A stretch of DNA of 53,425 bases from Rhizaria sp. SCN 62-66 (lineage: Eukaryota): assembly GCA_001724265.1 (NCBI GenBank), contig MEDY01000280.1, positions 1-53,425 of the forward strand, written 5' to 3'. The position numbers and the translations under genes are program-made. Below, piece by piece: positions 7,943-40,691 of this stretch. The notes beneath the pieces are model-generated. The model searched no databases and had not been told where the DNA came from. It was given only the letters and a program-made list of their open reading frames with translations. Within the stretch, counting starts at the first letter, position 1, and each line of letters opens with the position of its first letter.

Positions 7943-8006
<64 letters not shown>

Positions 8007-17100: not shown

Positions 17101-20100
17101 CGCCGGTGCTGGCCGGCGTGCTTACGCTCACCGTCGACGGCGCACTCGCGCTGGCGCTGCCGGCGCATTTCCCCGTCGCGGCCGAGAACGCCGCGGTGAC
17201 CGTGGGCGCCGCGCGGTGTGCACTCGCTGCACCGATGTGGCTGGCGCGCGCGCTGCCGGTCCGCGCCGCGCGCGCGCTGGGCGTCGCATGCGCTGGCGGT
17301 GCACTTCCCGCGCTCTCGCTCTCCTCTGCCGGCGCTCCAACGCTGACGCTGCGCGCAACGCCCGGTGCGGAGGCCGAGGCCGAGACGGTTGCCTGGGTCC
17401 ACGCCTCCTCCGCCGCGGCCTCGCGGTGGCCCGACACCGGCAGCGCGCAGAACGGCGCGCAGAGCGGCGCGCGCGCGTGCACGCTGTACCCTGCCGCGTG
17501 CGGCGACGCGGGCGCTCGGGCGCTGGTGCTGGCGTTGCTGGCGAGTGTCGGCGACCGCGCGACGACCGCGGCCACCGCGGCCGCCGCTGCTGCTGCTGCA
17601 CTGGCTGCGCGCTCAGTGGGCCGCAATGCGAGCGCCGACTCGCTCAGCGACAGCTTCAGCGCCTTTGCGGCTGAGTCGTCGCCCGTGGCTAGCACAGCCG
17701 CTGTTGCCGCGGCAACGGCCGCGTTCTCCGGCCCGGCGCTGCTGGCGCGCGCTGAGGCTGTGTACAGCGAGCTCTTGCCGCACGGCGCTGGCTTTATCAC
17801 GGCCCTGCGCGCACTGCTGCCGCCCTCGCGCCCGGTAGCTGCTGCTGCCGCTGCGGCGCTCGCGACCGTTGGCGCTGCTGGCGCTGGCGCGGCCACTGCA
17901 GTCGGCGCGTTTGAAGGAGCGCTTACGCCGCTGATTGATCCCACTGTGTCGCCTACCAACGTGGCCCCCGCAGCTCCCACAGCGCCAGCGCAGGGTCCGA
18001 TGGCAACGCTTGGCTTTGAGCTCACTGCGCCCGTGATTATGGCGCTCGATGCTGCGTCCTCGTCTTCCACTGATACCAGCGCTGGCGCCAATGCTCAGAC
18101 TGCTCTGGCGCTCGCACTCGCCAACTGGGAGCGCAGTGCCGCCGGCGATGTTAGCAACCAGAGTGCCGCGAACAAGAGCGTTGCGTCTGCGAGCTCGACG
18201 GTGTTGGCGCTGCGCGGTCTGAACCCTCATCCGCTGCTGCCACAAACACTCCCGCTTTCTTTCAGCGACAGTGCGGTTACCGTCCGTCACTCCGTGCCTG
18301 CCTCCGGCTTTACCGCTGTGGCTGCTGAGCCCGGCAACGGCCTCGCTGCGCTGGTGCTCGCGTCTTCGTCACAGCTGCTGCTTGGCCTCCCCTATGCATC
18401 CCCCGCTGCGCCTTTGGCCGCGGTCCGCGCAATGGCTGCGCTTGCCGCTGCGCCGGGCCCGCGCGCGCTACTCGCGAGCGCCGTCGGCCCCGCGGCTCTG
18501 CGCGCGCTGCTGCTCGATCCTGTCCCGCTTCTCTGGCGCATGGCAGCCAACGGCACCGCTAGCAACAGCGCCCCTGGTGCGAGTGACGCGAGAGAGCAGT
18601 GGCGGCGCAGCTTGTTCCGTGCCGTGCGTTTGCTCGCGCGCCGGCTCTACTGGGGCTCGGCCGCGGGGCTGGGCGCGTACGGCCGCAGCGCGCTCGCGGC
18701 GGGACTCATCAAATATCTCGTCGGCGACGTCACGTACTGGTGCCCACAGCCTTCGGCCCCCACCAGTGCTGACGCGGGCAGCCGCTGCGACGTGTGGATG
18801 CACACACACGTGGCAGCCGCGGTGGCCGAACTGTGGACGCACCCACTGACGCAGCCGCCGCCGCTGAGCGCCGCGGCCGCCGTCGCCGCGCGCATGCGCG
18901 TGTTTGCGGCCGCTCAGGCGCGCGCGAGCGCGTTACGCGCCGAGTTCTCGCGGCTGCAGCGTCAGCGTGCGTCGTTGCTGCACCAGTGGCAGCGCCACCA
19001 GCAGGCCTCAGCGCGGCTTGGCGCTAGCGCGGCGCAGTCGTCCTCCGGGGCCGGCCGCCGCGGCGCGCTGTTGTCTTCTTCGCAGGCGCAGGCGCTGGCG
19101 CAAAAGCTCAACGCGACGACCTCTGCACTCGACGCCGCTGCGCAGCGCTCGCGCACTGCAACGGCCACGGCCACCGCCGTTGCACCGCCGTTCCTGCTGC
19201 TGCCGCACCTCGCGAGCGACTCCCCGCTCGTTAGAGCCGAGGCTGCGAGCGGCGGCGCGGGCAGCAACACCAGTGCACCTGCGCTCGGTGCCGGCCTCGG
19301 TCCCGGCTTTATCCTGGACCTGGTCCGGTTGATGCACGCGCCGCATTTGGCACGTGGCTCCGCTCGTGCGGACTCGCTCATCGCTCCGTCCGAGAGTGAA
19401 GACGATGCCGGCTCTAAGGGATTTGCTCTTGTTCGCGTGTACGCGCGCGCGGCCGCCGAAGCGCTTCTGAGCCAGTGGGTCTCTCGTTGCGCGCGCAATG
19501 CTAAGACCGACACTGCTGCACCTCGTGACGCCATCCTCGCGATGGGACTGTCCAACGTTTCCACAGGTCTTGAACCCACCGCGAGCACGGCTGGTTCACG
19601 CAGTGTCGACGCCGATGCGGAGCCCTACTACGCGCTGACCGGCCCGACATCGCGCATTGTGACCGGCGCGACCGAGGGCGCTGCGGCGGACGCGGCCGTT
19701 GCTGCAGGCGGAAGCCAGGCTGCGGCCGCGGGTGCGAGCGCGGCGTCGTTCCTCGCGTTCCAGCATACGCAGCTCTGCGCGTTGCCGCTTACACCGTACG
19801 CCGTGCTAACTGTGCCGCGCTCTCGTGCGCTTGCGGTTGAGGCTGGCATTCGTTCTGCGCCAACAGCCCATGCGACCAACAAGAGCGCTAGCTCGAGTAC
19901 TAAGCCTATTACTGCGGAACCGCGTTCACTGTCAACGCTTGCGGCGCGTGCTCGCCGGCTTAACTTCTCTCGCGCGGACTGCGCGGCGCTGGCGCGTGCG
20001 CTGCATGCGCGCGTGGGCCGCTTCTTTCGCTCTATGCGCGCGGTGCGTCTGCGTGCGCTTAGGGCTCGCACTGCGGGCTCTGCTCTACCGCCTCCCGCAT

Positions 20101-23100
20101 CTGATGACGACGAAGAGGAGGAGGAAGAGAATGACGAGAGTGACAACGACGGTGAGTATGTTGGCGAGAAGAATGCTGACGGAGATGACGCTGAGACTGC
20201 AGCCTGGTGCGATGCGCTTTGGAACGCGCTCGCGCTTGATACCACGGTTGACAATAATGCAAGCTCTGCTGCAGCCGACGACGATAATGATGACGAAGGC
20301 GAGGACGAGGAAGCCGGACTTGCTGCACTCGAGACGTATCTCGCGCTTTCTGCAACGTTCGGCCTCGCACTTACGGACATGCCGCCTGTGCTTGTTCCTG
20401 CCTGCGCCATGCCCGGGCCTGCCGCGTCGGTGGCCGCGACGCCTGCAACTGCACTGTTGTCTGCTCCCGGCCGCCTCGGTCGGCGCTGGTTGCGCGCGCT
20501 TACTGCGCTAACTGGCCACGCGCGTGCCGCCGCCGCTGCAGCCGCCGCGGGCGTGCCGGTGCCGGCGCTCAACAACGTGACTGATCCTGCGGCTGTGGCC
20601 ACCGCCTCCGCCGCTGCGGCTGCGCTTGCGCGCGGCGCCGGCTCGCTTTTCAACGGCCTCACGCCTGCGATGCCGCCCAAGACGTTACTGCCGCTGCTCA
20701 ATGACAACGCTTCCCAATTCAACGCTTCTCTCAAGCCGTTGACGCTGGATTCGACAGCGCCTGCACGCCGGCTGCTCGCGTTGCTGCCGCCCGCACTCGC
20801 CTGCGCGGCCGCTCAGAAGGACTACAGCGATGTCTTGGCGCTGCTTGCGCTTGCCGCTGACTGCACGGAGGCCGCTGCCGGCCCCGCGGCGACCGAGCCG
20901 CTGCTGGGCGCAGTGCTTGAGACGTTGCTTGCTACGGTGCTCCTTGCGGGCCAGCCGCACGCTCTGTACACGGTCTTCCTGCAGCAGCACGTGCACCTGA
21001 CTTTGGCGCGCGTGCTTAGCCACGCGACGTCCTTCTCCTCAGCCGCGGTGCCCGCGCTCGTGCTGCGTGTGCTGCAACTGACCGTGGGTACGCTCGTCGG
21101 CAAGATGGTGTCCCGCGCCGCGCCACCCGCGCCCGTGACGTCCCCCGCGCCAGCACCGGGCCAGCCCGCGCTGCCGCCGCCGCCGGTGCCCGCGGGTCTG
21201 GGGCTCGGTGCAGCGACCGTGAGCGCGGCTGTCGGCGGCCCCGGCGCCAACTCCGCGGCCGCGCTTGACCCATTCTCCGTCACTCTCTATGTGCCGCTGA
21301 CGTCGGGCACCCAGGCCGGCACCCGGCTTGATCTGCTCGCGCTACGCTACCTTGAAGACGAGTCCGCTGCGGTCGAGCGCGCACTGTCTCTTGCGCTCGA
21401 CGCGGCGGACGCGCTCACAGTCACCAGCGTGGAGTGCGCTGTGAACGCGGACGAAGCCGTGGAGGCTTGCGCTCCGCTCGCGCGCTGCGCGGACTGGGCG
21501 AGCGCTGTTACGGGCGCGCACAGGGCGCAGCTCACCTCGGCCCTGGCGCTTACTGCGCGCGCTGTGCTGACGACGACCGACGCTGCCATGGCCGCGGGGT
21601 CTCGCGAGTCTCGCACGGGCACTCTCTCCGGCTTTGGCGTCACGGGCGAGGGGCTTGCGCGCGGTGTGCTCCAGTGGCCTTCGTCCGCCGCGGCGGCTCG
21701 CGCCCGTGCTCGGGCGCAGACGCTGCTTGGTATTGCATCCGAGACTACCGCGAACGATGACACGAAGAGTGACGACTGTGTTGTTGTCAGCGGGACTGTG
21801 TTCTCGGTGCTACTTGACGCTATTATGCCATTGCTGCCTTCTGATGTCATTCAGTCCACAGCGGCGCAGGCGAATGCCAATGCGCTGTTTGCGCCTTCAT
21901 GGTTGTATCTGTCAAGCTCGACTCACGGAACTGCGCCGCCGCTGGCCGCGTTGCCGCCGCCGTCGTTCCACTCCCTCACTTCGCCGCTGCTCACGGTCAC
22001 TGGTCCCGCTCCACTGATGGCGTTGCTGCGCCTGGCCGCGCGCGCTCCTGCTGACTGCGCTGCGCCGGCACTGCGCAGGTTGTATCTGCTTCTTGCACGT
22101 GACGTGCGCGCCGACTTTTTTGGTCCCGCGCGCGTCTGGGCCTGGTCCTCTGTTGCTGCACTGCCCGGTGTCCGTGGTTGGGAGCGCGCCGTCTCAGCCC
22201 TCACAGTCTCCGCCATTGCGCACGCATCTTCCGACTCGACTGACACCGATGACAACGCCCGCGCGCGCATGCTGGCGATGGCCACCGCGGTCCTTGCCGC
22301 AGCGCCCGCCGCCGCGTTCCTGGACCTCACTGCAGACGCCGCTGTGACCGGCGCGACCATGGCAGGCGCCGCTCCGCTGTCCGCCGTCCCCGCACTTGCG
22401 CCCGCCGCCGCTGCCGCTGCGTCCGCTGTCGCCGGAACGCTACGCCGCACGTCGGCCATGACGTCGCCGTCCCTCGCTGACGCTGCCGCAGCGGCCGCCG
22501 TCGTGGCTGGGTTGGAGGCGCGCTTCGGCCGCGGCATCTCACCCGCACCCGCCGGCTTCGCGTGGCTCCCGCCGCCGCCCGCTGCCGCGCTGCCTCTGCC
22601 GGGCGACGCCGCGGCCGCGCGTGGTGTGTTCGCCCCAGTTGCGCTGCCTGCAGCCTCCGCAGTTGCTGCGGCGTCTCCCGCGGCTGGTGGCGTAGACCTC
22701 TTCTCTGCGTCGTCCGCCTCAGCTGCTGCTGCCGCTGCCGCGCCACTGCGCTTGCTCCTGATTGCTGGCACAACTACCACCGTCGACGCCGCTGCCATCA
22801 TGCGGTTGCGTGCTGTGCTTGGTGGGGTTATCGAGATCAAGCCTTGGGCTGTCGACACCAGGGTCTCCGCACGCTCGCAGCCGGCTTCCGCGCTCACCGT
22901 CGCCGACGCCGCCGCTGCGGTTCCTCCTGCAAACGCGAGCGGCGACTCCGCGCGGCGCCGCAACTCCGCGGCAGCTGCTGCGGCCGCAGCGGCGACTGCC
23001 GCGGCCAGCGCCGCCGCGGCTGCCTCCGCGTCGCATGTGTGGTCCGTGGCCGCCGCGCTGGACAAGGGTATCGACAAGGCGCTTGTGCTGCCCGCCACTC

Positions 23101-26100
23101 TCCGCGCGCTCGCCACGGCCGCCCGCCTTGCGCGCACCGCTGTTCCAGCTGCGCAGGTCTGGGAGGCGCGCACCGGCGTCCTGCTGGCGACTGTGCGTCG
23201 CGCAGCGGCGGCTTTCCCGTCGCTGCAGCGCATTGAGGGCGCGCGCGCTACGGTGCAGGACAACGCTGTCGGTCCGCTTTTGTGGCCCTGCGTGTCGGCT
23301 GCGCCCCCTGCGCAGACCCAGCTCTTTCCGCGCTCGCTTGCGCCGGCTGGTGGCGCCATCTATGGCAGCTCTAGTGCCGCATCTTTTGGTGGCCAGCCTG
23401 GCATGGGGTCATCGTTGTCATCCTCGTCGTCGGGCTTAACGGGCTCCATGACTATGCCTGGGACAACCATGGCTATGGACACCTTCATGATCGAGTCTCC
23501 TGCCAACGTCAACGTCAGTGGAAGCACAAACTCCTCAAGCACACAGCGCGCGACACTGATGCGCGCACCGGCACCTCTGGCGATGCCGCTTTCGGGCGCG
23601 CGCGTGGAGCCTGACGTGTTCCCCGACGTTTTGCCGGTGCTCAGCTCGAGCTCCGATGGAATTTCGCCAGCTGCTCCTGCTGTCGTAGCCGCACCATTCG
23701 ATGGCCCTGTCGCGTTTGTGTTCCCTGTGGCACCTTACAAGTCGCGTTTCTCGCGCACCGTGCTCACTCTGCGTGGTCCCTCGTGTGCGCTACACGGCGT
23801 CCCTGTGCCCGCCGTCGCAGCGTCCGCGCCCGCGCCTGCTCTGGGCTCTTCTCGTGCCACGCGCTCCGCCGCTGCAGACAAGCTCGCCCGCCTTAACGTC
23901 ACACTAGGCCATGTCGAGGAGACCGCTGACGCCCGCGGCGGCCGCGGCTCCGTCCCTAGAGGCTCGGCGCCGCCGCCCGACGTGTTCGAGGCCGCGGCGG
24001 CCGCTGTCTGCACGTGCTCGGTGCAGCAGGTGACGTCGACTCCGCTGGCCGCCGACTACTCCACCCGCGGCTCGCACGTGCCGCCGCTGCAAGCGCCGGT
24101 CTTCATCCCCGCTTCCGGCACTGCTGCGGCCGCTGCCGCCGCCGCCGCGGCCGCTGTGTCGGCCGCGGCGCCCGGTTCGGGTGAGCTGCCTGGGGCGCCC
24201 GCGGCGCCGGCCGCGACGACGGTGGGCGACGTTTCGAGCATGCTGCTCTCGCTGCCCGGCCCGCACCAGCGCGTGCTGCTGGCGCGTCTGGAGGCGCTTG
24301 TGCTCACTGTGCTGCACCACTGCTTCGACCACCGCTCGGGCCCCGTGCGCCGTGCAGAGCGTGCGCTCCGCAAGCAGAGTGCCGGCGCCAGCGACGTCGA
24401 CGACGACTGCGCTCTGCCCACGGAGACTGAGCTCGAGCTGCTGCTGTTCGCGCTCTCGGCCTCGGCCACAGTGCTCGCTGCGCACCCCGTGCCGGTTGAC
24501 CCGTCATCCTCGTCTGCAGGCCCCGCTGCTGCCGCCGCTGCAGCTCTCGCTGGCGCGGCTGCTGTAGGCGCGGGCGCATGTGCACGTCCGTTTGCAGCGC
24601 ACGTGCTCGCGCTGTATCTATCGCGCCTTGCACCGCTGCCGGCCTTCTACCCGCTCCTGCTGCCGCTGGCCCTTCTTACCCAGCGCGTGCTGCTCGGCGA
24701 CCTCGTCCGCGAGACCCCCGTCTTCGACGCCAGCGGCCGGCTTGAGCGCGTCTGGGGTGGCGACGACACGGAGGCACCGCAAAACACCGCCTTGTCCGCA
24801 GCCGCTGAGAGAGCGACAAGCGTCGACTGGTGGTGCCAGGAAGGTACTGCGGCTGCGGGGATCACGGCACGCCGTCTTCTCGCTGTTTCCGCGCCGCCTG
24901 ATGTGCCTGAGCGCGGGTACAGTCTGCCGCCTACGCCCAGTAGCACTGGTTACGCCGGTGACACCGCCGCGCTGAGCTCGGTGCCTGCGCCTGCACCCAC
25001 GCCCTTCGCGCTGCCTAGCAGTGCGCTCTGCAGTGCTGACGCTGCAACAACCAGCGGTCACGGCACCGAAGGCCCCGGCCTGCTGCCCTCGAGCTCGGCG
25101 GTGCCGCTGGATCACTTCCTGACGAGTGAGAGCGCTGACCGGCTTGCCGCTGGCGCGCTGTCTACGTCTGCCTCCTCAGCGCACGTTTCTGTGGCGATCC
25201 CCGAGGCGTCCACTGCGTCATCCTTGTTCCTTTCCGTCCCCGTCGAGAGCAACTACGACCGTAACGCACGACTCGTCATGGGATTTATCGCTCTGCTGTC
25301 GCGCGCCGCTGATGCTGCAGAGCCTGCGATCGCCTCCATGGGTGCAACTGCTTCCGTGTCTGACGAGAAGAAGGACAGTGAGGAGGCCGCGACTGAGAAG
25401 GCGAGCGAGCTGGTAGCACCGCTGCGCGCACTGGCGACGGAGCTGTGTCAGCAATGGGGCCTCGCGGGTTCGGCCAACGTGACCGCACTGTTGGTACGCA
25501 TGCGACAGGCCGAGGAGCGCGAGCTACTTGTCGCGCGCAGCCGTCAGCGCCGCTCGCGCCGCCTCAATCCCAGCCCTGCACCCAGCGCTACAGCTGCTAG
25601 CGGCCTCGTCTCAGCCATGCCGTACTCTGGCACCAGCGCTGACGGTGACGCTGACGAAGACGAGGGCGGCGCGCGTATTCCCTTCGACACGCCGACGGAC
25701 GCCGCATCAGCGTGGTCAATCGCCATGCTCGCGACCGCGCGCCCCGCCACTGCGCCCGCTCCGACAAAGAGCAGCGCAACGCTTTGCGCGCCTGCAAGCT
25801 TCCCCTGCGCGTTGCCTGCGCGGCCCGCTGGCCCGCTGGCGCAGATGTCCACGTCGCCGGCGCTCTCTGCGCTTGCGCGCGCTTCTCTGGCCGGTGCCGC
25901 CGCGCTCCGTGCCGGCGCGGCCCGCGCGTGGCGCCGTGGGTACTGGCGCCGCGGCGCGTTTGCCGCCGCGCTGGACGCGCCCTGGGCAGGCTGCGCGCGC
26001 GAGGCCGCCGGCGGCGACGGCGCCGTGGCTCGCGTTGCCGCGCTGCTCGACGCAGACCGCGAGGAGAAGGAGGCCGAGGCGTGGGGCCTTGCGCAGGGCG

Positions 26101-29100
26101 CTGCTGCCGCTGCTTGCGTTCTCGGCGATTGCGCCGACCCGCTCACGCCCGATGCAGTGCCTGAGCTGCCGCCGCATGCAGGTGCTCTAGCCCTCGCGCC
26201 CGCGACCACTGCTGCTGCCGCTGCTGCCGCCCCGTACCTTCCGCGTGTGTTCTCCCCCGAAGCGCAGCGTGCCGCTTTGGCGGCCCTCCCCGTTGCCGTC
26301 CTGGCTTCCTTTGCGCGTGCCTGGCGCTGCGAACTGAGCTACTGGGGAATTCACCCGTCGCATCCCCCCTTGCCGGTTCCGTCCGCTTTGTTGCGCTCGC
26401 AACGCCGCTTCCGTGCTCTGGCAACAGCCGCTGCGCACGCGCTGCCCGCGCTCACTCATGCTGCACCCGAAGTTATTGACGCTGCGTTCGGCGCTGGTCC
26501 GTGGGCTGCAGCAGCTTACGTCGCGCTTGTCAACGCCGCTACCCCCGCAGCTTCGCCTGCTTCTGCCGTCACTGAGATGGGCAGTCCGCGCGTCGCTGAC
26601 AACCGGACAGAGAGCAGCGCTGAAGATGGCACTGAGGTTGACTGGGACGGCATCGCTCTGCGGAGCATCATCAATGACGCCTTGCTTGCGGTCACGAGAG
26701 CGCATGTGAGCTCGACGAACGCGCATCCTGCTTTAGCGTCCCGGATTCTGCTCCTGCCTGCACAGTCTGCAACGCGCACGTTGCTAGAGCATGATATCTC
26801 GCGTGCGCGCAATTTCGCCACCGTGCTTGACAACTCAGTGCTTGTGCCGGTGTTTCCTGCCGCCACTGATCGGCGCGTGCAACGCGCGGCGCGCGCTGTT
26901 GCGGCCGCTGCGCTGTCGCCCGTGCTGGCCCGTGGTGCCGAGTCCGTTGATGGCACTGGACTTGGGTTATTCCCCGGCTCCGCGTTGTCGCTTGGCCTCG
27001 CTCCCACGACAGATCTCCTGGGTTCGTGGCTCCGCGCGGCGTGTTTGGTGACTGGCGGGAACGCGCTCGACAACCTCCCAGTCGTGGCGCGCGGCGCAGT
27101 GGCTGCAGCGGCGCGGCGCGGTCTCTGGACCCCCCCAATTTCTCCGCTGCCTGCGGCGGCCGCTGTTGCACTTGCGCTTGCAAAATGGCGTGTCAAGTCT
27201 GCTCTCGCCCCGCTGCTCACTCTGGCGCCGGGCTCTGCTACTCTGGCACCGCGTCTTCTGCTGTCTTTCACGGAACCGCTTGCGGACGTTTGCGCGATGC
27301 GCGCGGTTTACAGGCCCTCTTTGCCCGTCGAGTCGCCAGCGTTCCCGCTACTGCCGGGGCTCGAGACGCCCACTGAGGCGCGCGCAGTTGCCGGCCGGGG
27401 GATCTGGACGCGTGCCGCCGCTGCCGCGCAGGGCCGCGCTGGACTCCCGCTTGCACTGCCACCGCTCGCTGCGCACACAAACGCACAGTCTTGCGAGAGT
27501 GCAGCTGCGGAGGCTGATGCGCAACAACGCCGGCTTGACCTGTTGCTGCCACTTGCACTGAGCGCGTTGGCGCGCTCGGGTCCCGTGCCCGCTGCGGCTA
27601 ATTGCCCCGCTGTTGAGGCTGAGCGCCGTGTTGCTGGCGCCATCATGGTGGCACTCCGCAATGCGCCTGCGATTGCGCAGTCCGCGACGGTGGGCGCACT
27701 GGCCTCACTCTACGCTGCGCTGACATTGGCGCTGTCTGGTGCGGACGCCACACCCGAGACCCAGCCTGCGGTTGACGGCCTGCTAACATCTCTGGCAATC
27801 CCGATTCTTGCCCCGCGCTCAGCAGAGGGCGCCATGACGCAGACCTCACCTGTTGCGGCCACCTACGCACTCTCCGCGTTCCCCTACGCACCGCTTGCTC
27901 ATCCGCTTGCCGCGGTCACGGTCTCGTATAATCCCACAAACACGCCACGTGCAGCAGGCACACGCCGCCGCCCTACGACTCCGCGTGCTTCCAACAGCCG
28001 TTCGCACTCTTCCTCTGCAGCTGCGACAGCACCCGCGTCTGCACGCGCGAATGGTCCCGCGTTCCCCGCGCCGGCCACGACTCACCTGTCCGCGGGCGCT
28101 GACCCGCTGCGCGCGGGCACCGCCGCTCTCGCACGGCTGCACTTTGCGCTTGACGAGCGCGCTCTCGTCGCCGCTGCGTCGCTGGAGCCCTCTGCCGAGT
28201 CGGTGTATTTGGCCGCCTCGTGGCAGAGTGCGGAGAAGCGTTCGCTGCTTGCGCTGCGGCGCATGGCGCTCGCTGGCCTTGTTTCAGCCGCATCTGCCGC
28301 CGCCGCGCGCGCTGCTGCTCGTCTGCCCTATGGAGGTGCACTCGCCGCGCCTGCTGCGGAGGATTCTGCGTCCGCAGCCGCTGCGGCTGCGGCTGCTGCG
28401 GCAGCCGAGGGTGACGCGCTTGATAGCGCGAGTGGTGACGCTGGTCTCATGACGGGGCTGGACGCTACGCTGATGGCGCAAACGGCGCGCGCTGCCGCCG
28501 TGGCCGCCGCTGCCGCTGCGGCAGGCGCAGGCACTGGACTTGTGATTGAGGAGGTGGCTGAGTCGTCTCTGTCTGATGTTGACACCGAGCTTGCTGCCTC
28601 AACCGCAGGTGCTCAGAGTGAGATCTCGGTGCGCGGCACGCGGGCGGGATCGATGGACGTCGACGACGATCTCTCTGCGTCCGCAGGTGCCGCATCTACT
28701 GCAAGCGCGGCGCGTGGTGGTGACGATGACGATGACGACGGCGGCCAGGTGTACTACGGCGCAACAGACTCTGTACTCCACGCGCACCGGCTTGCTGATG
28801 ACGACGACTCTAGTGCGGCCGCCGCATCCGACTCCACTGGTCCCACTGTCACCATCGGCACCAGCAGCGCGATCGCGATCGCCACCACAAAAGGCGCGCT
28901 GGGCGCCGGCGTCGGCGTGGGCGTTATGAGCACCGGTGCGACCGCTGTGGTGCTTGCGACTCCCGGTAACTTGCCGCAGTCGACTTCTCAGTCTGCTGCG
29001 CGCAAGGTCAAGCCGCACCCTGTATTGCCCAACGGCGCGTCTGGCATCAGCTCAGAGCATCATGCTGCTGCTGGTGCTGACGTCGCCCCGGCCGAGGCTG

Positions 29101-32100
29101 CAGCTGCTGCGCCTGCGCCTCCTGCTCTGTCCGACACGGAGACTGCAGCGGCGCTGGCGAAACGCACAGGCGTGGCGATTGCTGCGGCAGTTGTGCTTGT
29201 GACACCGCTGGCGCAGTTCAAAGGCGTTCTTAGCATCGATAATGAGCTGGTACGTTTCACTGGTCTGGAGGTTGCGCCCACTGTATCGGCTGCTGTCGCT
29301 GCCGCTTCCGCCGCCGCAGCTGCCGCTGTGGGTTCTGCTGTTATCAACGCCGGCGGTGTGGTTCCGAAGGGTGCCTCTTGGCGCGATGAAGACGGCGTGC
29401 GCCCGCTGTGGCCTGCGTATCCTGAGGCCAGAGCTGACGCACGCGCCCGCCGAAGCAAGCGTTCGCGCTCGGCCGTGGTTCGTCGCCGCGATGCTGGCTG
29501 CAGTGGCTCGGACAGTGCGTCTGACAGCGCTGGTGAGCAGAGCAGTGACAAGGGTTCTTCATCCACCTCATCAGATGGTGAAGATGACGACGACTACAAG
29601 CACGACGGGCTCGAAAAGAGTGACAGTTCGCGTGTGCTCGCTAAGGGCGTCACTCCGACGGCTCAAGCGCCGGCGACCGTGTCGCTGGCGCTGCCGTTGT
29701 CGGACCTTCGCCGCGCACTGCCGCTTCGTCATCTGTCACGCCCGTGTGCACTCGAGCTGTACTTTGCTGACGCGCGGTCGTACCTCTTCTCGTTCTGTCA
29801 CCCTGATGCCAGCGACGAGGCGCTCGCGCTCAACGTTATTGCTGCGGAGACGCGCCGCGCTCGCCGCGCTGAGCACCAGCGTGAATCTACCGCGCGCGTT
29901 CAGCGGCAGCAGCAGCGCGGTGTGCGCTGGCGCATGCTGCAACGGCAGCTGCAGCAGGCGACGCTGCAACAACAACAGGCTGCGAACCCGTCTGAGGCTG
30001 GCGCCGCTAACGCCGCGGTCGCCGACCTGCGCGTTGCTATGGCTGCTCTTGACCGTGACGCTAATGTTGACGCCGCTGCAGGTGAGGCCGCAGACGCTGC
30101 CGCTGCTGCCGCTGCTGCCGAGACCACTGAGAGTCTCGTGCGTGGTTATGACGGCGCGGGTCTTCTGACGGCACCGCCTGCGATGTTCCCGGTGCGTCTG
30201 TACAACACGGCGCGTCTGCGTCAGCGTGCGAGCTAGTACGCTGCGCGTGACGCGTGCTACACGCATCTGTGCCGTGCCGTGCTGCGCTGCCCCGCGCGCC
30301 TGAACCCGCGCGAGGCTCTGGCTGCAAGTGGCGTTACTGCCCGCTGGCGCCGCGGGCAATGCTCTAACTTTGACTACCTGCTCGAGCTTAACCTTCTGGC
30401 TGGACGGTCCTTCAACGACCTGTCACAGTATCCCGTTTTCCCTTGGATTTTGTCAGACTACACGTCATCGCGGCTCGATCTGACCGATCCCGCAGTGTTC
30501 CGTGATTTGCGCCGCCCCGTCGGTGCCCTCAGTCGCGACCGTTGGCGCACGCTGCGCGCACGGTACAACACGCTTCGTGCGGCTCAGCGCATGGCGGCCG
30601 GTATTGATGATGACGACGAGGATGACATGGCTGGTGGCGACGGAGACGGCGATAGCTCCGGTGGTGAAGACGCCTGGGATGCCTCTGGCATTGCGCGCGC
30701 CGCTCCTCTGCCTCGCCTGCACCGTTTCCGCAACTACCCGGATGCGATGCAGAGTTCGTCTTCTGAGTGCGAAAGCAGTGACCACGAGTTATCCGAGTTC
30801 GAGGCCGACCGTCGCATCGTTGAAGCCGCGATGGTGACAGCCGAAGCGACCGCGGCTGCTCTGGGTGAGTCCGGCGACGGAGACTCTGATGACGACGCCC
30901 CACCCCCCGCCGCTGACGGCGTCGAGGGTCCGCGCGCGCCCGCTCGCGCCGGCCTGACTTCTTTTATCGCTCTGGCAACATCCGCTGCTGAGAGCCGGGA
31001 CGTCGAGGCGCGCGCGGCGGACCGGTACGGTGGCCGCGAACTCTTCTACATTTCGCCCACAAGGCTTGCTGCCAACTCGACCGCTCTGCGCACCGAGCTT
31101 GCCAAGCAGGCTGCTAACGCCGAGAAGGCATTGTTGCCCGCACTTCCCCCCGCTGCCGCTGCCGCAGCAGCCGCTGCCGCCGCGGCTGCCGCGAAGGCGC
31201 CCGGCAGTGGATTGCGCGCACGTGCAGCGTCAACCGCAGCCGCTCACGCGACCGCTCAGGCTGAGGGCACACGCGCCTTACGCCGCCTCACGAAGGCGCT
31301 TGGCGCTCTTACGCTTGCGCGCAACGCTAAGGCCGCCGCACGCGTGCCTGCCGCAGCGACGGCGCCCTCGTCTGCGGCTGCATCGGGTACTAAGGCTCTG
31401 ACAGCCGCGCGTGATGCGCTAGCCGTAGCGTTGTCGCATGCGAACAAGCCTGCTGCCGGCTCCGGTAGCAAAGCGCCGACCGCGATGACGTCGACGCTGC
31501 TTGCAGCAACGGGCACTGCGGCAACTCTCTGGCTGACGCCTCTCGCTGCGCACACCCCTGCCTCGGCTCCTCCTGCGGCTGCCGGTGGCGCCGGCCGCGA
31601 CATGGTTGTACCTGTTGACAGCTCGGTGATTGCGTCCACCTTGAGCCCTGTCATGGTGCCATTCATGTACGGCTCTCACTACAGCTCACCGATGGCCGTT
31701 CTGCACTTCCTTCTGCGCATGCGGCCGTTCACTGCCGCGGCCGCGCGTCTTCAGGGTGGTACTGCTGCAGCTGCAGCGGTGCAGAAGCAGCAGCACCAGC
31801 TCATGCAACAGCAGCAGAAGGCCAAGAAGGCCGCTGCCGCTGCAGTCACTGCGGCGAACGCCGCCGCCGAGCGGGACGTGGCTTCGTCCGTCGCGAGCCC
31901 CAAGAGCGTTGACGACGAGACCTCTGCACATCGCCGTCGCCGCCGCGCGCGCCGCACTGCGCGCCGTTTCTCACGCTCACTGCGTCATGCGTGGGCTGCG
32001 TCGGTCGCAGCGCATCCGCTTCCCGCTCCCACCACCGTTGCGCTTGCGCTGCCGCGCGCAGCCGCCGCCTCTACCGACGATGTTGACATTCAGAATGATA

Positions 32101-35100
32101 ATACCGCGGCACTTGACTCCGACGCAGCTACATTTGCTCACGCCGCCGCCGCTGCCGCTGCGGAGCTGGTCTCTGGCGCAGTGACCCAAGTCGGCTACGG
32201 TGCCGGTGGTCCTGTCGCTGCGGCTGCTGAGGCACTGCTGCGCTCCGCTGTCAAGGAACTCCGGCGCCGCCGCGCGCCGCTCGCCCCGGCCCCGGCCACT
32301 GCGCCGACCGAGTCCGCACACGGCTCGATCGAGGAGGTGCTTTGTGCAGCGCCGACGCAGCGTCTGACCGCCCTTCTGTCTGCCGCGTTGGCAGTGGTGA
32401 ACGCTTGCTACCCGCACCCGCAGCCGGGCCCTGTGCTTGACCTCCCTGACCGCCTGTTCGCCTCAGTTGCCGGCGCATGGGCCGCTGCCACTGCGTCCGG
32501 TGGCGACGTCAAGGAGCTCACTCCCGAGCTCTACATGGCGCCTGCCGCGTTCGTCAACTCGGCTGGCGCGGACCTCGGCGTTCGCTCCGCACCCAGTCAG
32601 GTTCATCCCGTCTCCGCGGCTAATGACGACGCCTCTGTTGCTGCGGCTGCCGCTGCAGCGCGCGCCGCTGCTGCCCCCGCCGCTGTGCTGGGCCGTCGCC
32701 TTGCTGATGTCGAGCTGCCGCCGTGGGCGCAGGGCTCTCCCGAACGCTTTGTGGCGCTGATGCGGTCTGCGCTTGAGTCGCCGCACGTGACCGCGCACCT
32801 GCATCACTGGGTTGATCTCGTTTTCGGACTCAAGCAACGCGGTGCACTCGCAGCAAGCGCCCGTAATGTTTTTTTCGACGTCACTTACTTCGCCGGTCGC
32901 GACTGCCGCGTGCTTATTCCACCTGCTGCCGCCGCTGCTGCCGCAAACGCCGCACGCGCCGTGGCTCCCGCACCGCTGCCCGCGCCTGGTGAGGCGCGCC
33001 CGGCGGCTCGTGCGCGTGTTGAGGTGACTGCAGCGTTCCTTGACACGATTGAGGATTACGCTATGCGCAAGGCCATGAGCGACCAGATCGACTTCTTCGG
33101 AACTTGCCCCGCACAGATCTTTGCTACTCCGCACCCGCGTCACTGCCGAGCGCGTGCCGCGTTGCCGCCGGTGCCCCCGATGCTGCCGCCCCTCTATTGG
33201 TCGCGTGTACCTCGTGGTTCCGTCGCCACTGCCGGCTCTGGTGAGAACGCTACAGAGGATGACGTTACACACGCCAGTTGCCCCGTGATTCGTGTGAAGG
33301 ACGCCGCGCTGGCCGCACTCACGGTCTCGCTGCCGGAGCTGCTTGCACCCTCGCCGAGCGACACTGGCGCCGTGATCGTCGCTCCAACCCCCGTCGGCTC
33401 GTCAGCGCACGCGATCTCTGAAGCCCCGTTAACACCGTTCACGACGACGGTTGCTCCTGCTCCCGGTTCTGCCCCCGCAGTGCTGCCCCGCGCCACAGCG
33501 GCCGGCATGCAAACGATTGTGGCGTATGAGCCCTCGCAGGCGCTGCCGCGCGCGCTCGCGCTAACGGCTGACGGCGCGATCCTGACGATCACTGACGTCG
33601 ACAGTCCCAAGAACTCTGCCAAGGGTCGTTTCGCTGTTGCAAGTGGCGCAGTTACTGTGGGCAGTTTGGATCTGGCGCCTTGGCTGTTGGCTTGTGCGGC
33701 TCAGCTGTCCACCGCGGCTGCCACCCATGCCACAGCGGCCGCGCTTCGCCGGCTTGACTTCGATGACGCAGCCTTCGCGGCTGCTGACGCTGCTGCGACC
33801 GCCACGGACTCCGCTGCGTCTGCTGCTGAGCGTCAGCGCTGCAGTGCCGCCATCACTGCTGCGGTTGCCGCAGCAGCGACTGTGGCGACGGCGGAAGCTG
33901 CGCTCCGAGACGCGGAGAGTGCTGCGGCCGACCGCCGCGACGCGCTCCGTCGCCGGCGCGATCGCCGCGCGCGCCGTGCCGCCGCTGCGCGCGCTGCCGC
34001 TCTGGAAGATCCTGAGTCGAGCCCCCCGCGTGTCCGCACGGAGGACGGGAACTTGACGCCGCAACCGGATGTGCGGAGCCCCGTCGTTCCTGCTGGTTTG
34101 AACGTGCCTGTCCACGCGCACGAGAAGCCGGAGACGCCCGCGGAGGCTGCTGCTGAAGACGCCGCTGAGGCAGCCGAGGAGGCTGCTGCGAGAGTGGCTG
34201 GCGAGAAGGCGGCTGCTGCGCGCGCAGAGGTCCGCGCCGCGCACGCCACGGCAGCGTCGGCCGCTGCGCGGGCTGCTGACGCAACTAGTGACTCGTCTGC
34301 CGCGTCTGGTGCACGCGAAGGCGCCGCGAGTGCTCGCGCCCGCACCACGGCTGCGCGCCACGCCGCCAACATCCGGCTGCGGACCGCGCTTGCGCACGTG
34401 GAGATGGCGCTGTCACTTACTCCTACCGCACCCGTGACGGCCTCCGCGGCTCCCGCGGCCGAGCCTGCGTGGACGATGGGCTTTCTGCCGTCACCGCGCG
34501 CTGCTGCGGCCGGAGCTGCTGCCGCGCGCGCGCTGCTGCTGCTGCAGTCAGATGCGCAGGACATCTCGCGTCACAGCGAGGAGCCCACAGTCAGTGACAG
34601 CTGCGTTGTGCGCGTTTCCCCTGCCGCACTCGAGGCAGCTGCGGGCGCGACCGTGATTGTGCCTGCGTCTGCGGCGCGGAGCGCTGCGGCCTTGCTTGCG
34701 CTGTACTCTGAGCTTGACCGTGCGACGCACGCACCGCCCGCGCTCGCGCCCATCGTGACGCCCGCGGCCCTGCTCGCGCATCTGAATCCCGCCGCTCGCC
34801 GTCGTGGCCACGCGTCGATGCAGTTGAGCGAGGATGACACGCAAACTATTTTGACAGCAGTTGTCGCCGCTCTTTATCGCGCAACTGTTGCAGACGATCT
34901 CGCCAAGTTCTCTTCCCTAAGTACCGCCGTCAAGCTCCCATTGCACCCTGCGTTTGCGCCTTTGAACGTGTCCGCTCGTGGCGTACCGTCGATGATCTCG
35001 TCTGTATTGCTTCCCGCGCTCTATGTCGCAGCCATTGCAGCTTCAAGTGTTGTTGCATTGCCTGCACCTCGCGCGCTACCTGCACCGGTGCCTGCTGCCG

Positions 35101-38100
35101 TAGCAATGCTGTCCGCTGCACTGCACGCTGGCCCTACTGCGCACACGAGCGCAGTGTACTTTTCGCTTCTTTCTGCTGCTCGCTCCGATGCGGCGAAGCC
35201 GTCGAAGCAAGGCAAGTCCCCGTGCGCCGCTCCTGATCAACGTCGCAGCGTCGCTGTCGAGCGTGCACCGCTGGTTGCTCCTGTCATTGTAGGCGCACAC
35301 CGGCTGGTGCTCACGGTCACCGCGACGGGCCAGCTCAACGTGCACTGTCAGAGCACTCGCACAGGCGCATTCACCACAGTTGCCACCGCTGCCGCTGCGG
35401 CCTTGGGTGCGCCTGCGACTGCTTTAACAGCTACTGTCGCACACCAATGCGCGCGCGCCGCATGGGCTCTGGTCGGTGGCGCGGACAGTACTGTCTCGCT
35501 CTGGCACATCGTCATCGGATCTGACACGGACGTGAAGTCGCCCACCGTTGCCCTCAACCGCCGCGGGATCTGGCACCCGCACTCGGCCGCGGCGGGCCCC
35601 GTGGTTGCGTTGAGCGTGGACGCCGCTTCCGGTCTGATGGCCTCGCTCGCGACGCACCACTGCCCCGCGAGCACAGCTGTGATGTCCACAGGCGGCGAAG
35701 TCGTCGTGCTGACTGCCGCGCTGCCGGCCTTCGCGGCGTCGGCGGCTGCTGCTGCAGCGACCCAAGTCGCCGCCACGGTTGCTGCGCGCGTGCACCTGCC
35801 GAATGACACCGCGCCCGAGGCACTCGTCATCGTGCCGGGGCCTGTGCCAACGGTTGCCGTCGCCGCTCGTGCGCTGCTTGTCCCGCGTGTTTTGACCGAC
35901 GACCGTGAGCGCCTCGCCATGCACACGCTGCTGACCGCCGCTCCGCAGCGCGCGGACGCTGCGCACGACGCCGCGGCCGCCAACGCAGGCGTGCCTGCTG
36001 GCGTCGCGGTGCCGCTCATCGCGAGCCTGCCGCCCGTGTTCAACACCGCACCTGCGCACCGCAGCGAGACGACGCAGCGCTGGGGCTCGGACGTGTTGAT
36101 GCTCTTCTCGGTGCTCGACGGCACCGGCCGCCTGCTGCGCCGGGTCCAGTGTCGCGACAGGCTCACTGTGCTCACCGTGACTCCCGCTGCTGCACATGAG
36201 ACGTTTACTGCGGCTGCTTCGCCTGCCTCAGCCACGCCGAGCAACGCACTCGTGCCCAGCGGGTCCTCTTTCGCGTCGTCCGCTGCTGCCGCCGCCGCTG
36301 CTGCTGCGGCTGAGGCTGATACCGCGGCCGCTGTGACGGCTGCGCAGACTGAGCTCGCCGCCGCGACGGGTACTTCGTCCGTGGCGCTCAACCCGGCCGC
36401 GTTCCACGTCGTCACCGGCGGCCTCAGTGGTCGCGTGACGGTTTATGACGCGAGTCTGACGCCACTCACAACGTCTGCCAGCACAGGTTCAGGCGCTGCT
36501 GCCGCGCTTGCTCTTGCCGTTACCAGTCCTGCCCCGGACACGTCCGTGCTCGCCGCCCCGCAGCGCGCCGTGCTGAACCGCCTTGCGCGCACCCTCTCCC
36601 GCGGGCTGCATCTCGACGAGCCCCTGTGGGCGCTGGCACACACCGCAACTGGCGACGGCGCGAGCGCGCGCATTGCTAGGGGCGATGACGCGACTGGACA
36701 AAACAACGCCGACGATGATGATGACTATACTGACGCGCCCGTGACCGCTGGTATCAACCGCGGCGCTGTCTCGACTTCGGCCGGCCCGCGTGGCGTTGTT
36801 GCCCTCACTGTGCAGCAGCCACCAAAGATCAGTACTTCCGTGGCAGCTGCTCCGGGTGCGCTGCCCGTGCGGATTGCGCAGTCTGCTGCCGCCGCAGTGT
36901 GCGCTGCGGGGGCTGCGACAGCGACTGGTGCGAACGCGGCTGCTGCCAGCGGCGGCGCGAACGCTCGCACTGCGCTGCTGCCGACCCCAGCCGAGGTTGC
37001 GGCTGGCTTCGCTGCTGTGGGCGCGACGGTGGTTTCGCAAACCGTGGCATACCCTGCCTGTGGGGCTGCCGCGACTGTCTCTGCGGCTAACGCTGCGGCG
37101 ACCGCTGCGGCTGCCGCAGTGTCCGCGATCGACACCAGCCACGGCATTCCACTCAAGACCGCCGAGTCTGCGCGCTCCGAGGCCGCTGATGTGTGCCACA
37201 TTCCCTTCTCGTTGTTGCTTTCCCCTGAGCAGCAGCAGGCGCTGCCTGTGATGCCGCTCACGCGTGCCACGCGCTCGCCATCTATGGGATCCCCCACTGC
37301 CGGTGGCCTCGGTGCGACTGCAAGTGGAGGGTCGCCGCCGCGTCTGTCTGGCGCGAGTCCGCGCTCCGGGCCCAGCACCACCGCTGCGCTGACTGAAGAG
37401 GCTCTGCTGGTGCTTGCGCCGCTGGCCGTGGCGACTACCGCGCCCGCGTCTGCTGTCGCGTCGTCTGGACCCGCTCTGCTGTCGATTCCGTCGTCGTCAT
37501 TCTCGTCATCCGTGTCTGCTGCAGCGCTGCCGAGCCCCGGCGGCGCGTATCGCCAGTGGGCGACGTCGTCATCGCCCATCCCGCCTGCGTTTGCCTCTGC
37601 GTCGCCGCATGCGCATACGTCGGCATCCGGCTTTGCCAACGCACGCGGCAGCCCCGCAGGCTCGGTCACGGGCCCTAGTGCCGGTCCAGCGGGCGCTCGT
37701 TCGTCTGTGACGACCAGCGCTGGTGGCTATCTGCGCCGCGCGCTTGGCATTCTCACTTCAGCTGCGAACGCGATGCCTGGCACTGTTGCAGTCAACGGGC
37801 TCTCAGCTGCTGAGGCCGCTGCGGCTGCCGATGCCGCGACGACCGCTGCCGCTCTCGCACTGGCGTCTGCGTCTGGCGCCCCCACGCTGCGCTCGCGTGT
37901 GACAGTTGGTGCACTCGCCACTGCCGCGACGGTCCCTCTTGGTATTTCGGCCTTCACTGCGCACGCGCGTCCCGACACGTTTGCAAACGAGGCGGCGACT
38001 GCGCTTGCCACCGCTGTTTCACTGGCGCAGCTGTCCCCCTCGACACTCGCTGCCTCACGCGGCTCGCGTGGTGGCAGCGTCGGTGGCTTCTCGTTCTCAC

Positions 38101-40691
38101 ACTCTGGCTCTTTAGGTTCATTCCTGTCACCCCACGGCGGGCTCACGCTGGCCGCATCAGGCCCTGGCTCTCCTCAGGGGGCGCCAGCAGGCACCGCTCG
38201 GCTGTCCTTGCTGTCGCCCACGTCGCCCTTCGCTGGGACGCAGCGTCTTTCTCAATCGCCTCCCCTTGCTCGCGCGGGTATCGCAGGCTCTCCACCGCTG
38301 CAGCAGTCTGCGCTGCCCGCAGCAGCCGCCGACAGCTCTCCCAGTGTTGACAGCAGCGCCGACTCTGCTGCGCTCGCCGCGTCCACGCAACCGCCGTCGT
38401 CCGCCGCGCTTGCCGCGTCGCAGGCGCTCACCGCGCTGCTGGCCGAGGCCGCTGAGCAGAACGGCGCGCCGCGCCTCGGCTCTGCTGCGGGCGCGACCGC
38501 GCTTGGCCGGCTGCTGCGCAAGCTTGCCACGGGCTCCGGCGCGGATGCCGTCACTGCCATGTCGGCCGCTGGCGCCGCCGCTGGTTGGCAGCGCCACTCG
38601 CGCAGCAGCTTCGCGGCTGCCGTTGCACCCGGTGGCCTCGGCTCGATCGCACTCTCTGCCGCTGCGGCTGCGGGCGGCGTGCTTACTGTCACCCCCGCCG
38701 TCACCGCGCTCGCTCTGACGGTCGGTCCCCGCGACGCGCAGCCGCTCGCACCCACCGTGACGCCGCAGTGCGCCGACGCCGCCGCCCCGGTCCACACGCC
38801 GGAGCGACTGCTGTCTCTCGCTGCAGTGGTTGCGGAGCCCTGGGTTCCTGCGACCGTCGTCGCTCGCGTCGCGCGCAGGCACGCCGCCGCCGCTGCGGTC
38901 CTAAGCGCCGCCGCAGTCGCCATGGGCGCCAGCGCGAGCAGCAGCACTGACGTCAGTCGCGCTGCGGCGACGCGTGTGTACCTCGCGGCGCCCAGCTCGG
39001 CCCCCGTCGGTGCGATGACCGCTGTCGATCCGCTTGCGGTCGCTGCCGTGCACGGTCTGCTGGCGACCAGCGCGGCTGCCGGTAGCGTCTCGTTCGCGGC
39101 TGTCGGTCCCGAGGCTGTGGCCTCCGCTGGTGCCCCAGTGGCGGCCGACGCGGCCGTGCTTACAGTTGAGGCGCAGTCTGCGCCCGCAGCGCGCCGCCGC
39201 GACGCACTACTGCAGCTGCGCACCGCTGTTGCCGTGGCGGCGCGTGAGCAGGCGGTCGCGGTTTCCGCCGCGCTCAGTGCTGCTGTTGAGAGCGCGTTTG
39301 AGGAGGCCCGCGCCGCCGCCGCTCTCGCCGCCGAGGCTGAGGTGCACAAGGCGGCGGTGGCCGCTGCGATCGCTGAAGAGAACGCGCACGCCATTGCGGA
39401 AGCTGAGGTCGACACAATCACAGGTACCAAGTCGCCTGCTGATGCGCTGACCGCTTTCCTCGAAAGCTCCGATCCAGCAGTCACTGCACCCATCCCCATC
39501 GGGAGCAGCAACAAGACTGCCGTTGTTGCCTCTCCGACAACGCCTGCGCCCAAGGCGAGCCCCGTTGCCGACACCGGCAGGGAGCTCTTTATGCCTGTGG
39601 TCTCCGTGTCTACGGTGACTGTGCCCGACGTTCCTGTGACACCGCTGCCGACTCTCGAGACTCCTGGCTCGCTTGGTGACAGCGTTGCGACCCGGGCGCT
39701 CTCAGGTCGCCAGCAACGTGCGTTATTGGGCCAATTTATGTCGAGTGTCGTGGCCGCTACAGACGTGCTTACCGCTGCAGAGGAGGAAGGCTCTGCTGAT
39801 CTCTCTGCGTTTGTGCGCGCCGACGACGGTCCTGCACACGAGCGCGGCAGCGCCAGGTTGGTGCTGCTCGCGCTTTCTGTGCCTACTAGTGTACACAAAG
39901 CCGCACAGGTCGCCGCTGACGGTGACGACACCATCGATGACAGTGACGATGACGGTGAAGAGGGCGCCGCTGCCGAGTCGGAGTCTGCTCGCGAGAGTAT
40001 AAGTCTGGCGGAGCTGTTGCTGCCGCGCGGCGAGCGCCGCCTTGCGTGCGCCAGGCTCGGATTCTCGTCCGTGTTATCAGGCGCCCGGGCCTACGCCTCC
40101 GCTGTGCGTGCGGCCGAGCGCCGCGCGCACGAGGGCGCTGAAGAGCATGAGGTGCGCGCGCGCGTGCGCACTCGCACCCTCCGCGAGCTCGAGATTGCCG
40201 AGCTTGGCATCGCGGGCGATGAGGCCGCCGCCGTCGCTGCAGCGGAGGAGGACGAGCACCTCGGCCTTGCCGCGCGCGCGAGGGCTGCCCATGCGGCGAC
40301 GCTCGCGGCGCGCGGCGGCGTCACGCTCGCAGAAGGTGGGTTCAGTGCAGGTATTAGTCTTGCAACCCCGCCTGTTGCGGCCGAGCTTGCCAGGGTTGCT
40401 GCGGCCGCGCAAGCGGCTGTGGCGGCTGCAGCTGCTGCTGAAGCTGCGGCCGCGGCACAGGCTGCTGCCGAGGCCGAGGCTGCTGCTGTTGCCGCTGCGA
40501 CCGCCGCCGCCGCTGCGGAGGCTGATGCAGCGCGCCGGGCGGCTGGCAAGGGCTCATCGAGCAGCGGATGGCCCGGCTCTCCCGGCCAGAGCGACAACGA
40601 CGCTGCCGGATCCGCCGTAGGTGGCGAGGGCGACGGCAAGAAAACGGTCAAGGCACGTCTCTCGTCGGTCATTAACTGGTTCAAGAAGTAA
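14118..40691 (+). CDS. Giant BEACH-domain protein (ConA/LamG-like, PH, BEACH, WD40-like), about 8857 aa if the internal TAG at 30234-30236 is read through
   Basis: ORFs 14118..30236 and 30279..40691 share a frame and are separated by one TAG. ConA-like YSFACWVRL...GRWCHVVLSH...LTVDG (~16626-17140). PH-BEACH VLVTPL..KGVLSI...LPLSDLR...[104 protein letters not shown]..PHP. Final stop TAA. The start codon is uncertain. Confidence 0.88.

Follow-up and report, generated by a model that had tools for sequence, protein, structure and literature searches.

A single in-frame TAG within the PH-BEACH region of a giant protist gene, and the possible translation of UAG

We describe a TAG codon in the contig MEDY01000280.1 of assembly GCA_001724265.1 (Rhizaria sp. 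SCN 62-66), all 53,425 nucleotides of which were analysed and are called the window below. The codon, at 30234-30236 on the plus strand, interrupts the reading frame of a giant gene for a BEACH-domain protein; it is a genuine genomic codon within conserved coding sequence. A kinesin gene of the same window is likewise crossed by one in-frame TAG. We are evenly disposed to the proposition that UAG is translated in this organism, either as a rare sense codon or as an efficiently suppressed one.

Results

The interrupted frame

The frame 14100-40691 follows a TGA at 14097 and closes with the TAA at 40689; its one internal stop is the TAG at 30234-30236. This had been claimed in an earlier note on the same DNA, and a count of stops in six frames bears it out; the flanking peptide RLRQRAS-TAG also reads as quoted there. 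Over the same span there are 136 and 285 stops in the other two plus frames and 108, 99 and 247 in the three minus frames. Set against these 99-285 stops, the two stop-free runs that flank the TAG in one frame (5,378 and 3,484 codons) are far beyond chance. A database protein of 5,337 residues (P0002) is the N-terminal open reading frame (ORF) counted from the ATG at 14223, and it terminates precisely at the TAG. When the window was scanned in six frames with only TAA and TGA taken as stops, the TAGs of the BEACH and kinesin genes were the only ones found in real coding frames.

A PH domain on both sides of the TAG

The earlier note had placed the body of a PH domain before the TAG and its RD..Y..L-type helix immediately after it, and had argued that a model of two genes breaks both PH and BEACH. 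All three claims hold. The region before the TAG matches the PH_BEACH family (Pfam PF14844) over profile positions 51-94 of 99, at E 6e-4 and 20.3 bits, which is under the curated cutoff of 27.5. It also aligns with residues 61-96 of PDB entries 1mi1 (neurobeachin) and 1t77 (LRBA), and its core strands are modelled with predicted local distance difference test scores (pLDDT) of 75-91.

The strands are separated from the last helix of the domain by a lineage-specific insert, at the 3' end of which the TAG is found (Table 1). Two alignments were used for the comparison with homologues: A1, of 5 metagenome BEACH genes, and A2, of 20 fragments. At the insertion point 18 of the 20 homologues in A2 have 3-6 residues, and the remaining two (P0136 and P0135) have inserts as well. 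The insert is modelled as a long helical hairpin (helices 208-266 and 270-321, pLDDT 85-97) followed by a loop. The hairpin, predicted to be antiparallel, occupies the low-complexity part at 29802-30143 (model residues 208-321); among known structures it is matched best by ESCRT-III-like and other coiled-coil hairpins, with Z of about 8, a value within the range of generic helical matches.

Conserved sequence resumes at once after the TAG. The 121 residues that follow it were searched against 1.84 billion representatives, giving 6,279 matches, of which the best 150 were re-aligned with HMMER. For 139 of these 150 the alignment starts within the 31 residues that follow the TAG; 84 reach back at least to residue 22 and 16 at least to residue 5. 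A1 and A2 share the motif R-[DN]-x-x-Y-x-x-L, which in the homologues stands 3-6 residues after the last PH strand. Its Arg, the fourth residue past the TAG, is conserved to 90% or more in A2 and does not vary in A1; a Pro of the lead-in to BEACH is also invariant in A1.

The BEACH domain starts about 35 codons after the TAG. The ORF after the TAG belongs to the BEACH family (PF02138) at E 2.6e-80 and 270 bits, in four stretches; in protein P0001 the domain is matched at E 1.7e-40. In the first stretch the identity to neurobeachin, LRBA and plant BCHC2-type proteins is 50-60%, and this stretch aligns with 1mi1 and 1t77 over about 92 residues at E 5e-27. Because the next in-frame ATG (30591) is already inside BEACH, a model of two proteins breaks both domains: PH is split, and a product started at this ATG would lose BEACH profile positions 2-81. 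A BEACH-type PH domain directly upstream of BEACH is supported by the PDB chains, by A1 and A2 and by fold matches of the model, with the Pfam match below the family cutoff; a single polypeptide carrying both domains requires that the TAG be passed.

An AlphaFold model was built from A2 with the TAG read as Gln (table 15); its mean pLDDT is 65.8. The position of the TAG is residue 352 of the model, in a helix of residues 338-368 with pLDDT 74-92. About 20 PH-domain structures align with the model from about residue 8 to 367-370, that is, to the end of the predicted helix containing the TAG position; the Z values, 6.3-7.4, are middling and we take them as support only. The alignments with 1mi1 and 1t77 have Z of 7.0 and 6.8 over 157 and 160 residues.

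The search for a close orthologue was negative in each collection. Among proteins of 2,014-6,411 residues, only the window's own N-terminal ORF was recovered, and all else was at most 54% identical. Among fragments of 121-387 residues, the best match is 77% identical over 16% of the query, and those covering at least a fifth of the query reach at most 68%; in both cases only the conserved BEACH part is matched. The best match in metagenome contigs is 62% identical. In the prokaryotic genome collection there are only two BEACH matches, both in bacterial metagenome-assembled genomes and 52-61% identical. These two lie on short contigs assigned to Burkholderiales and Planctomycetaceae (L081, positions 314-562, and L082, positions 4682-4924), and they are BEACH coding sequence that probably reflects eukaryotic contamination of the bins. 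In the C-terminal part, of 3,484 residues, no WD40 family was found at E 0.01, though large low-complexity inserts may hide one there, and no other Pfam domain was found at the same threshold in the N-terminal part.

Recovery of the T at 30234 in other data

Positions 28001-48000 were compared with four sequencing runs (X2-X5) at the level of Logan contigs, not of raw reads. The stretch was found in metagenomes from bioreactors, wastewater and activated sludge; runs X6-X17, with word shares of 0.07-0.18, were left out of the comparison. The contigs of X3 are identical to those of X2, so the two were counted as one data set. X2/X3 (record years 2016/2017) and X4 (2025) belong to separate studies. 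We treat X4 as DNA, since its contigs cross the intergenic stretch 41552-44816, and X5 is a polyA metatranscriptome.

The TAG is carried, with no differences and no gaps relative to the window, by X2 record 1 (DNA; 29588-30745), X4 record 18 (30156-30907) and X5 record 25 (30152-30397), and none of the four runs has a variant row at 30234. The earlier note had asked whether the T is real and had listed a base-call error among its alternatives. The T is upheld at contig level by the two DNA data sets, and its recovery in X2/X3, X4 and the RNA library X5 disposes of a base-call error and of an allele private to one sample. Logan contigs drop minor variants, and a C allele or a spliced form that is in the minority could therefore go unseen in them. 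Over the 20 kb compared, X4 differs from the window at just 3 sites. Two of these fall within the BEACH gene, 33383 T>A (synonymous) and 35101 T>C (Val>Ala), which are too few for testing selection downstream of the TAG.

A second TAG, in a kinesin gene

The minus-strand gene at 47817-52568 codes for a kinesin with a C-terminal motor, which we take to be of kinesin-14 architecture. A single TAG in its N-terminal tail divides the frame into 314 codons from the ATG at 52568 and 1,268 codons down to a TGA. Upstream of the TAG, frame 0 has a codon-usage score of 0.255 per codon and the two remaining frames score -0.40 and -0.53; one and the same frame is favoured on both sides. The GC fraction stays at 0.64-0.85 across the site. 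No in-phase donor agreeing with the local consensus at 5 of 6 bases was found within 450 nucleotides upstream of this TAG. The site lies outside the 28001-48000 stretch compared with other data sets. Around the BEACH TAG the same frame score is uninformative (-6 to +6), the model having been trained on Ala-rich sequence.

Terminators, codon usage and transfer RNA

Eight gene ends are definable in the window: five TAA, three TGA and no TAG, at a GC of 0.70 in third codon positions. UAG is thus not used as a terminator in this small sample. The GC of coding sequence is 0.65-0.75 and that of the sequence between genes 0.42-0.52. The BEACH gene contains 153 CAG, 351 CTG and 88 TTG codons, and one in-frame TAG among its 8,857 codons. 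The density of in-frame UAG is 2 in about 13,000 codons, or about 0.15 per 1,000. A scan of the window for transfer RNA (tRNA) genes returned none.

Introns and the RNA library

Four introns were measured (Table 1), and in each of them a pyrimidine-rich tail precedes a final CAG or TAG. The introns of the window thus have a GTACGY donor, a pyrimidine-rich body of low GC, a length of at least 110 nucleotides and a YAG acceptor. The candidate introns that would end with the TAGs share the acceptor alone; their donors are GTGCGT or GTGAGC, their GC is 0.64-0.73 and their lengths are 45-99 nucleotides. The statement of the earlier note that the 45-nucleotide candidate is GC-rich, unlike the clear introns, stands (0.64 against 0.22-0.50 in the four measured). 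Introns are few, about one per gene, with none in the 26.6 kb of the BEACH gene. The strict GTACGT/GTACGC donor recurs in every intron seen, including a further one at about 1072-1492 on the plus strand that has the same kind of start and a CAG/TAG end, and it may help in placing the lineage.

The hexamer GTACGC at 30236-30241, which begins with the G of the TAG, matches the local 5' splice consensus exactly; by our own estimate the chance of this at that place is about 0.2%, and there are seven such motifs in the ORF. An intron of 93 nucleotides from this donor to the AAG at 30326-30328, the sole in-frame acceptor before the conserved part of BEACH, was considered and rejected because it would delete 31 codons that are conserved in A1, in A2 and in the re-alignment of the 150 representatives, and because GC is no lower after the site (0.71) than before it (0.65). 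In GC the sequence after this motif resembles that after the six other chance GTACGY motifs of the ORF.

The earlier note had proposed RNA as a check on the stretch 30192-30236. It is retained, together with the TAG, in the sole contig of the RNA library over the site (X5 record 25). However, record 31 of the same library (41364-41653) still contains most of a proven intron, that of the DUF1761 gene at 41352-41481, so that the retention at the TAG does not discriminate between the readings. The unspliced record 31 could reflect intron retention, pre-mRNA or carry-over of DNA. X5 has no cover in bins 43342-45342, which include the FAS1 intron, and no splicing control is available from there. 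We take the joints among those listed to be repeat artefacts and not splicing: their sides of 20-23 nucleotides lie in GCN repeats, and the DNA runs have them too.

No structure that might stimulate readthrough was found in the 100 nucleotides after each TAG, which fold no better than shuffled sequences (z 0.03 and 2.2; three control stretches give 1.3-1.9). The contexts AGC-TAG-TAC in the BEACH gene and CCC-TAG-CTC in the kinesin gene have nothing obvious in common. Neither a downstream structure nor a shared leaky context is therefore seen at these sites.

Discussion

Two genes with an in-frame TAG, a frame and coding signal that continue past it, conserved residues at once after the first TAG and the absence of TAG from eight gene ends together favour translation through UAG. 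We infer both this translation and its mechanism. The ribosome would pass the TAG at 30234 inside one continuous and functional PH-BEACH gene, and the cause would be organism-wide: in this uncultured, GC-rich, intron-poor wastewater protist UAG would no longer be a reliable terminator. It would be decoded by a dedicated tRNA(CUA) or by efficient suppression, and genes would be ended with UAA and UGA instead. The very rare use of UAG is more in keeping with a reassignment that is young or of low efficiency than with one long settled. A more specific proposal, which we advance tentatively and regard as somewhat doubtful, is that the protist has been caught early in a reassignment of UAG only, with the codon gone from gene ends, tolerated or decoded inside genes and almost unused.

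Several of our own results weigh against a translated UAG. There are just two in-frame TAGs, and both are at poorly conserved positions, one in a loop or at a helix start of PH and the other in the kinesin tail, which is disordered; such positions do not point to any amino acid. Read by eye, the column of A1 opposite the BEACH TAG is G, G, gap/N, S and G, a variable loop position. An old synonymy of TAG with CAG or TTG would predict dozens of TAGs in the BEACH gene. The absence of TAG from the eight terminators is weak evidence, being expected by chance alone at about 10-30% by our estimate, and no tRNA gene is present in the window. The RNA contig cannot prove a mature mRNA, given the unspliced record 31, and the loss of minor variants makes a heterozygous CAG allele or a minor spliced form compatible with the contigs. 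The suggestion of the earlier note that UAG is a sense codon is accordingly both strengthened, by the kinesin TAG and the terminators, and restrained, by the lack of conservation at the two TAG positions.

Under the standard code both TAGs may be recent nonsense alleles, for example CAG>TAG, either fixed or heterozygous and collapsed in the assembly, in a nearly clonal population whose downstream ORFs have not decayed. With only three differences between X4 and the window in 20 kb, the populations are nearly the same, and no secondary damage would be expected from a lesion that is young. A stop arises most easily by C>T at an abundant CAG, very long genes offer such lesions the most sequence to strike, minor alleles are hidden in Logan contigs, and the rarity of in-frame TAG suits nonsense alleles better than an old reassignment. 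This explanation nevertheless needs two premature stops in the roughly 10 genes of 53 kb, both of them TAG where no gene ends with TAG; extrapolated, such a density would imply hundreds of truncated genes genome-wide. All the assemblies compared (the window, X2/X3, X4 and X5) moreover have this T, and truncation would break up a PH-BEACH module that, in its BEACH part, has kept 50-60% identity with distant homologues. We consider nonsense alleles unlikely. Gene-specific readthrough, programmed or leaky, in which near-cognate tRNAs read UAG at the two sites of an otherwise standard code and yield some full-length protein, seems to us very unlikely. A few special sites would be compatible with the rarity of in-frame TAG, and the kinesin TAG is followed by C, which may make its context a leaky one, as such contexts are in eukaryotes. 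On the other hand, the two sites show neither the structure nor the common context described above, readthrough normally extends a complete protein while this TAG is in the middle of a domain of which both halves are needed, and the eight terminators without TAG are left unexplained.

It is also possible to read each TAG as the 3' splice site of a short, atypical in-frame intron: 30192-30236 (45 nucleotides, donor GTGCGT) or 30138-30236 (99 nucleotides) in the BEACH gene, and 51689-51624 (66 nucleotides, donor GTGAGC) in the kinesin gene. The GT...AG borders of these candidates are in phase. TAG makes up 3 of the 5 intron 3' ends that we read in the window, and a real intron in a cyclin gene ends in a TAG that is by chance in frame with the next exon. 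The codons that the BEACH candidate would remove fall in the lineage-specific insert, so nothing conserved would be lost, and the unspliced proven intron in X5 leaves splicing at the TAG compatible with the library; for the same reason the retained candidate in the only RNA contig over the site tells little against it. GTGCGT agrees with the donor consensus GTACGT at 5 of 6 bases, but an in-phase donor of this quality occurs by chance 45-207 nucleotides upstream of 9.6% of codon positions (830/8,656), and its presence therefore means little; the kinesin donor GTGAGC agrees at just 3 of 6. The measured introns are of 110-203 nucleotides, T- or pyrimidine-rich and of GC 0.22-0.50, whereas the candidates are shorter and GC-rich and have no pyrimidine tract. 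The 21 codons of the kinesin candidate score as coding, with a log-likelihood ratio of 6.4 against a maximum of 5.1 in intron windows, which are shorter (14 codons) and not strictly comparable, and residues 338-352 of the BEACH protein are modelled within a helix (pLDDT 74-89). Both introns would also have to be a multiple of three in length, free of stops and in phase, yet the 31.5 kb of the two genes contain no frame-breaking intron. We judge introns of this kind to be quite unlikely.

Departures from the standard nuclear code are rare, and UAG has changed with UAA kept as a stop in only a few lineages. Should UAG prove to be translated, a new lineage, one that recurs in wastewater and bioreactor samples, would join the short list of UAG-only sense codes, with a bearing on how stop codons come to be captured. 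Such codes are already known, and the present case, if confirmed, would be notable for its very low usage of UAG and its GC-rich genome. The early-reassignment proposal, if true, would offer a natural snapshot of a codon-capture or ambiguous-intermediate stage that the established UAG-sense lineages have long passed. Gene callers split genes of this kind, as the separate 5,337-residue piece illustrates, so that annotations of the organism would be systematically truncated. If the TAGs are nonsense alleles or odd introns, the finding is an ordinary one.

The probable architecture, PH_BEACH followed by BEACH, is otherwise that of neurobeachin (1mi1) and LRBA (1t77). In contrast to these proteins, the gene is about three times longer (8,857 codons), has an in-frame TAG, and contains Ala-rich inserts that split PH (about 140 residues before the last helix) and divide BEACH into four stretches. 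As in programmed UAG readthrough, viral or cellular, a UAG has to be passed for the full-length product; here, however, the stop is inside a domain and not at the end of a complete protein.

As for UAG itself, the passages of Panek et al. (2017, PMC5304391) relied on here describe UAG as Leu in the rhizarian exLh and as Gln in Iotanema spirale, with UAA and UGA remaining stops. They count 71 UAGs in 8 proteins of exLh and 204 in 126 genes of Iotanema, place them at conserved Leu or Gln positions, and mention no UAG terminator in the Iotanema genes examined. Judged by these passages, the window is similar in having in-frame UAG in intact genes and UAA and UGA as terminators (TAG at 0 of 8 ends). 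It differs in its GC-rich genome and in UAG that is far rarer and confined to two unconserved positions, the last two points being further ones against a translated UAG. UAG is also reported to be reassigned on its own in an Oligohymenophorea sp. (PMC10553269) and in phyllopharyngean ciliates (PMC11687900). The decoupling of UAG from UAA is common to the window and to these ciliates as so described. Nothing suggests that the window is from a ciliate: its coding GC is about 0.68, its introns are of 110-203 nucleotides and UAA serves as a stop. Ciliate genomes are mostly AT-rich. Sparse use has a precedent in Amoebophrya sp. ex Karlodinium veneficum, in which all three stops are also sense codons and about half of the annotated transcripts contain none of the reassigned ones (PMC6394959); only TAG, and neither TAA nor TGA, is in frame in the window.

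Other features of the window

The window is eukaryotic, its genes having spliceosomal introns. The RPL15 fragment has its best relative, 88% identical, in a metagenome protein; its named matches, at 71-79%, belong to unrelated groups (Protocruzia, Goniomonas, Vitrella and Cyanoptyche), and the lineage is not placed by them. Coordinates are collected in Table 1.

Table 1. Features discussed in the text, in window coordinates
Feature	Position	Strand	Details
Giant intronless BEACH-protein gene	14118..40691	+	8,857 codons including the TAG; ends with TAA 40689-40691
PH_BEACH core strands (LRHLSRPCALELYFADARSYLFSF)	29691..29822	+	Pfam PF14844; alignment with 1mi1 and 1t77
Lineage-specific insert between PH strand beta7 and C-terminal helix	29802..30233	+	About 140 codons; TAG at its 3' end
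Candidate in-frame intron, GTGCGT...CTAG	30192..30236	+	45 nucleotides (99-nucleotide version from 30138); GT..AG borders; GC 0.64
Candidate intron, donor GTACGC at the G of the TAG	30236..30328	+	93 nucleotides; acceptor AAG 30326-30328; rejected
PH C-terminal helix (ARDACYTHL...) and lead-in to BEACH (..NPREALAAS)	30237..30329	+	31 codons; from alignments
First BEACH stretch	30342..30581	+	Pfam match, profile positions 2-81 of 276
First in-frame ATG after the TAG	30591..30593	+	Already beyond the first BEACH stretch
Kinesin gene, C-terminal motor	47817..52568	-	Pfam Kinesin 1.8e-56, Microtub_bd 3.6e-17
Single in-frame TAG in kinesin N-terminal tail (...ARGKP-TAG-LSAHG...)	51624..51626	-	Frame continues on both sides
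RPL15 intron	273-459	-	187 nucleotides; donor GTACGT; GC 0.43
Kinase intron	7882-8084	+	203 nucleotides; donor GTACGC; GC 0.22
DUF1761 intron	41352-41481	-	130 nucleotides; donor GTACGT; GC 0.50
FAS1 intron	44704-44813	+	110 nucleotides; donor GTACGT; GC 0.30

Upstream of the DUF1761 start codon, at 41870-41925 on the minus strand, there are two GTACGY motifs, one of them followed by TCATAG after about 20 nucleotides; these may be small introns of the 5' untranslated region. In the gene at 5374-8426 five LIM domains are fused with a protein kinase domain. The latter is interrupted by the 203-nucleotide intron, which has an unbroken poly(T) run of about 65 bases at 7940-8003.

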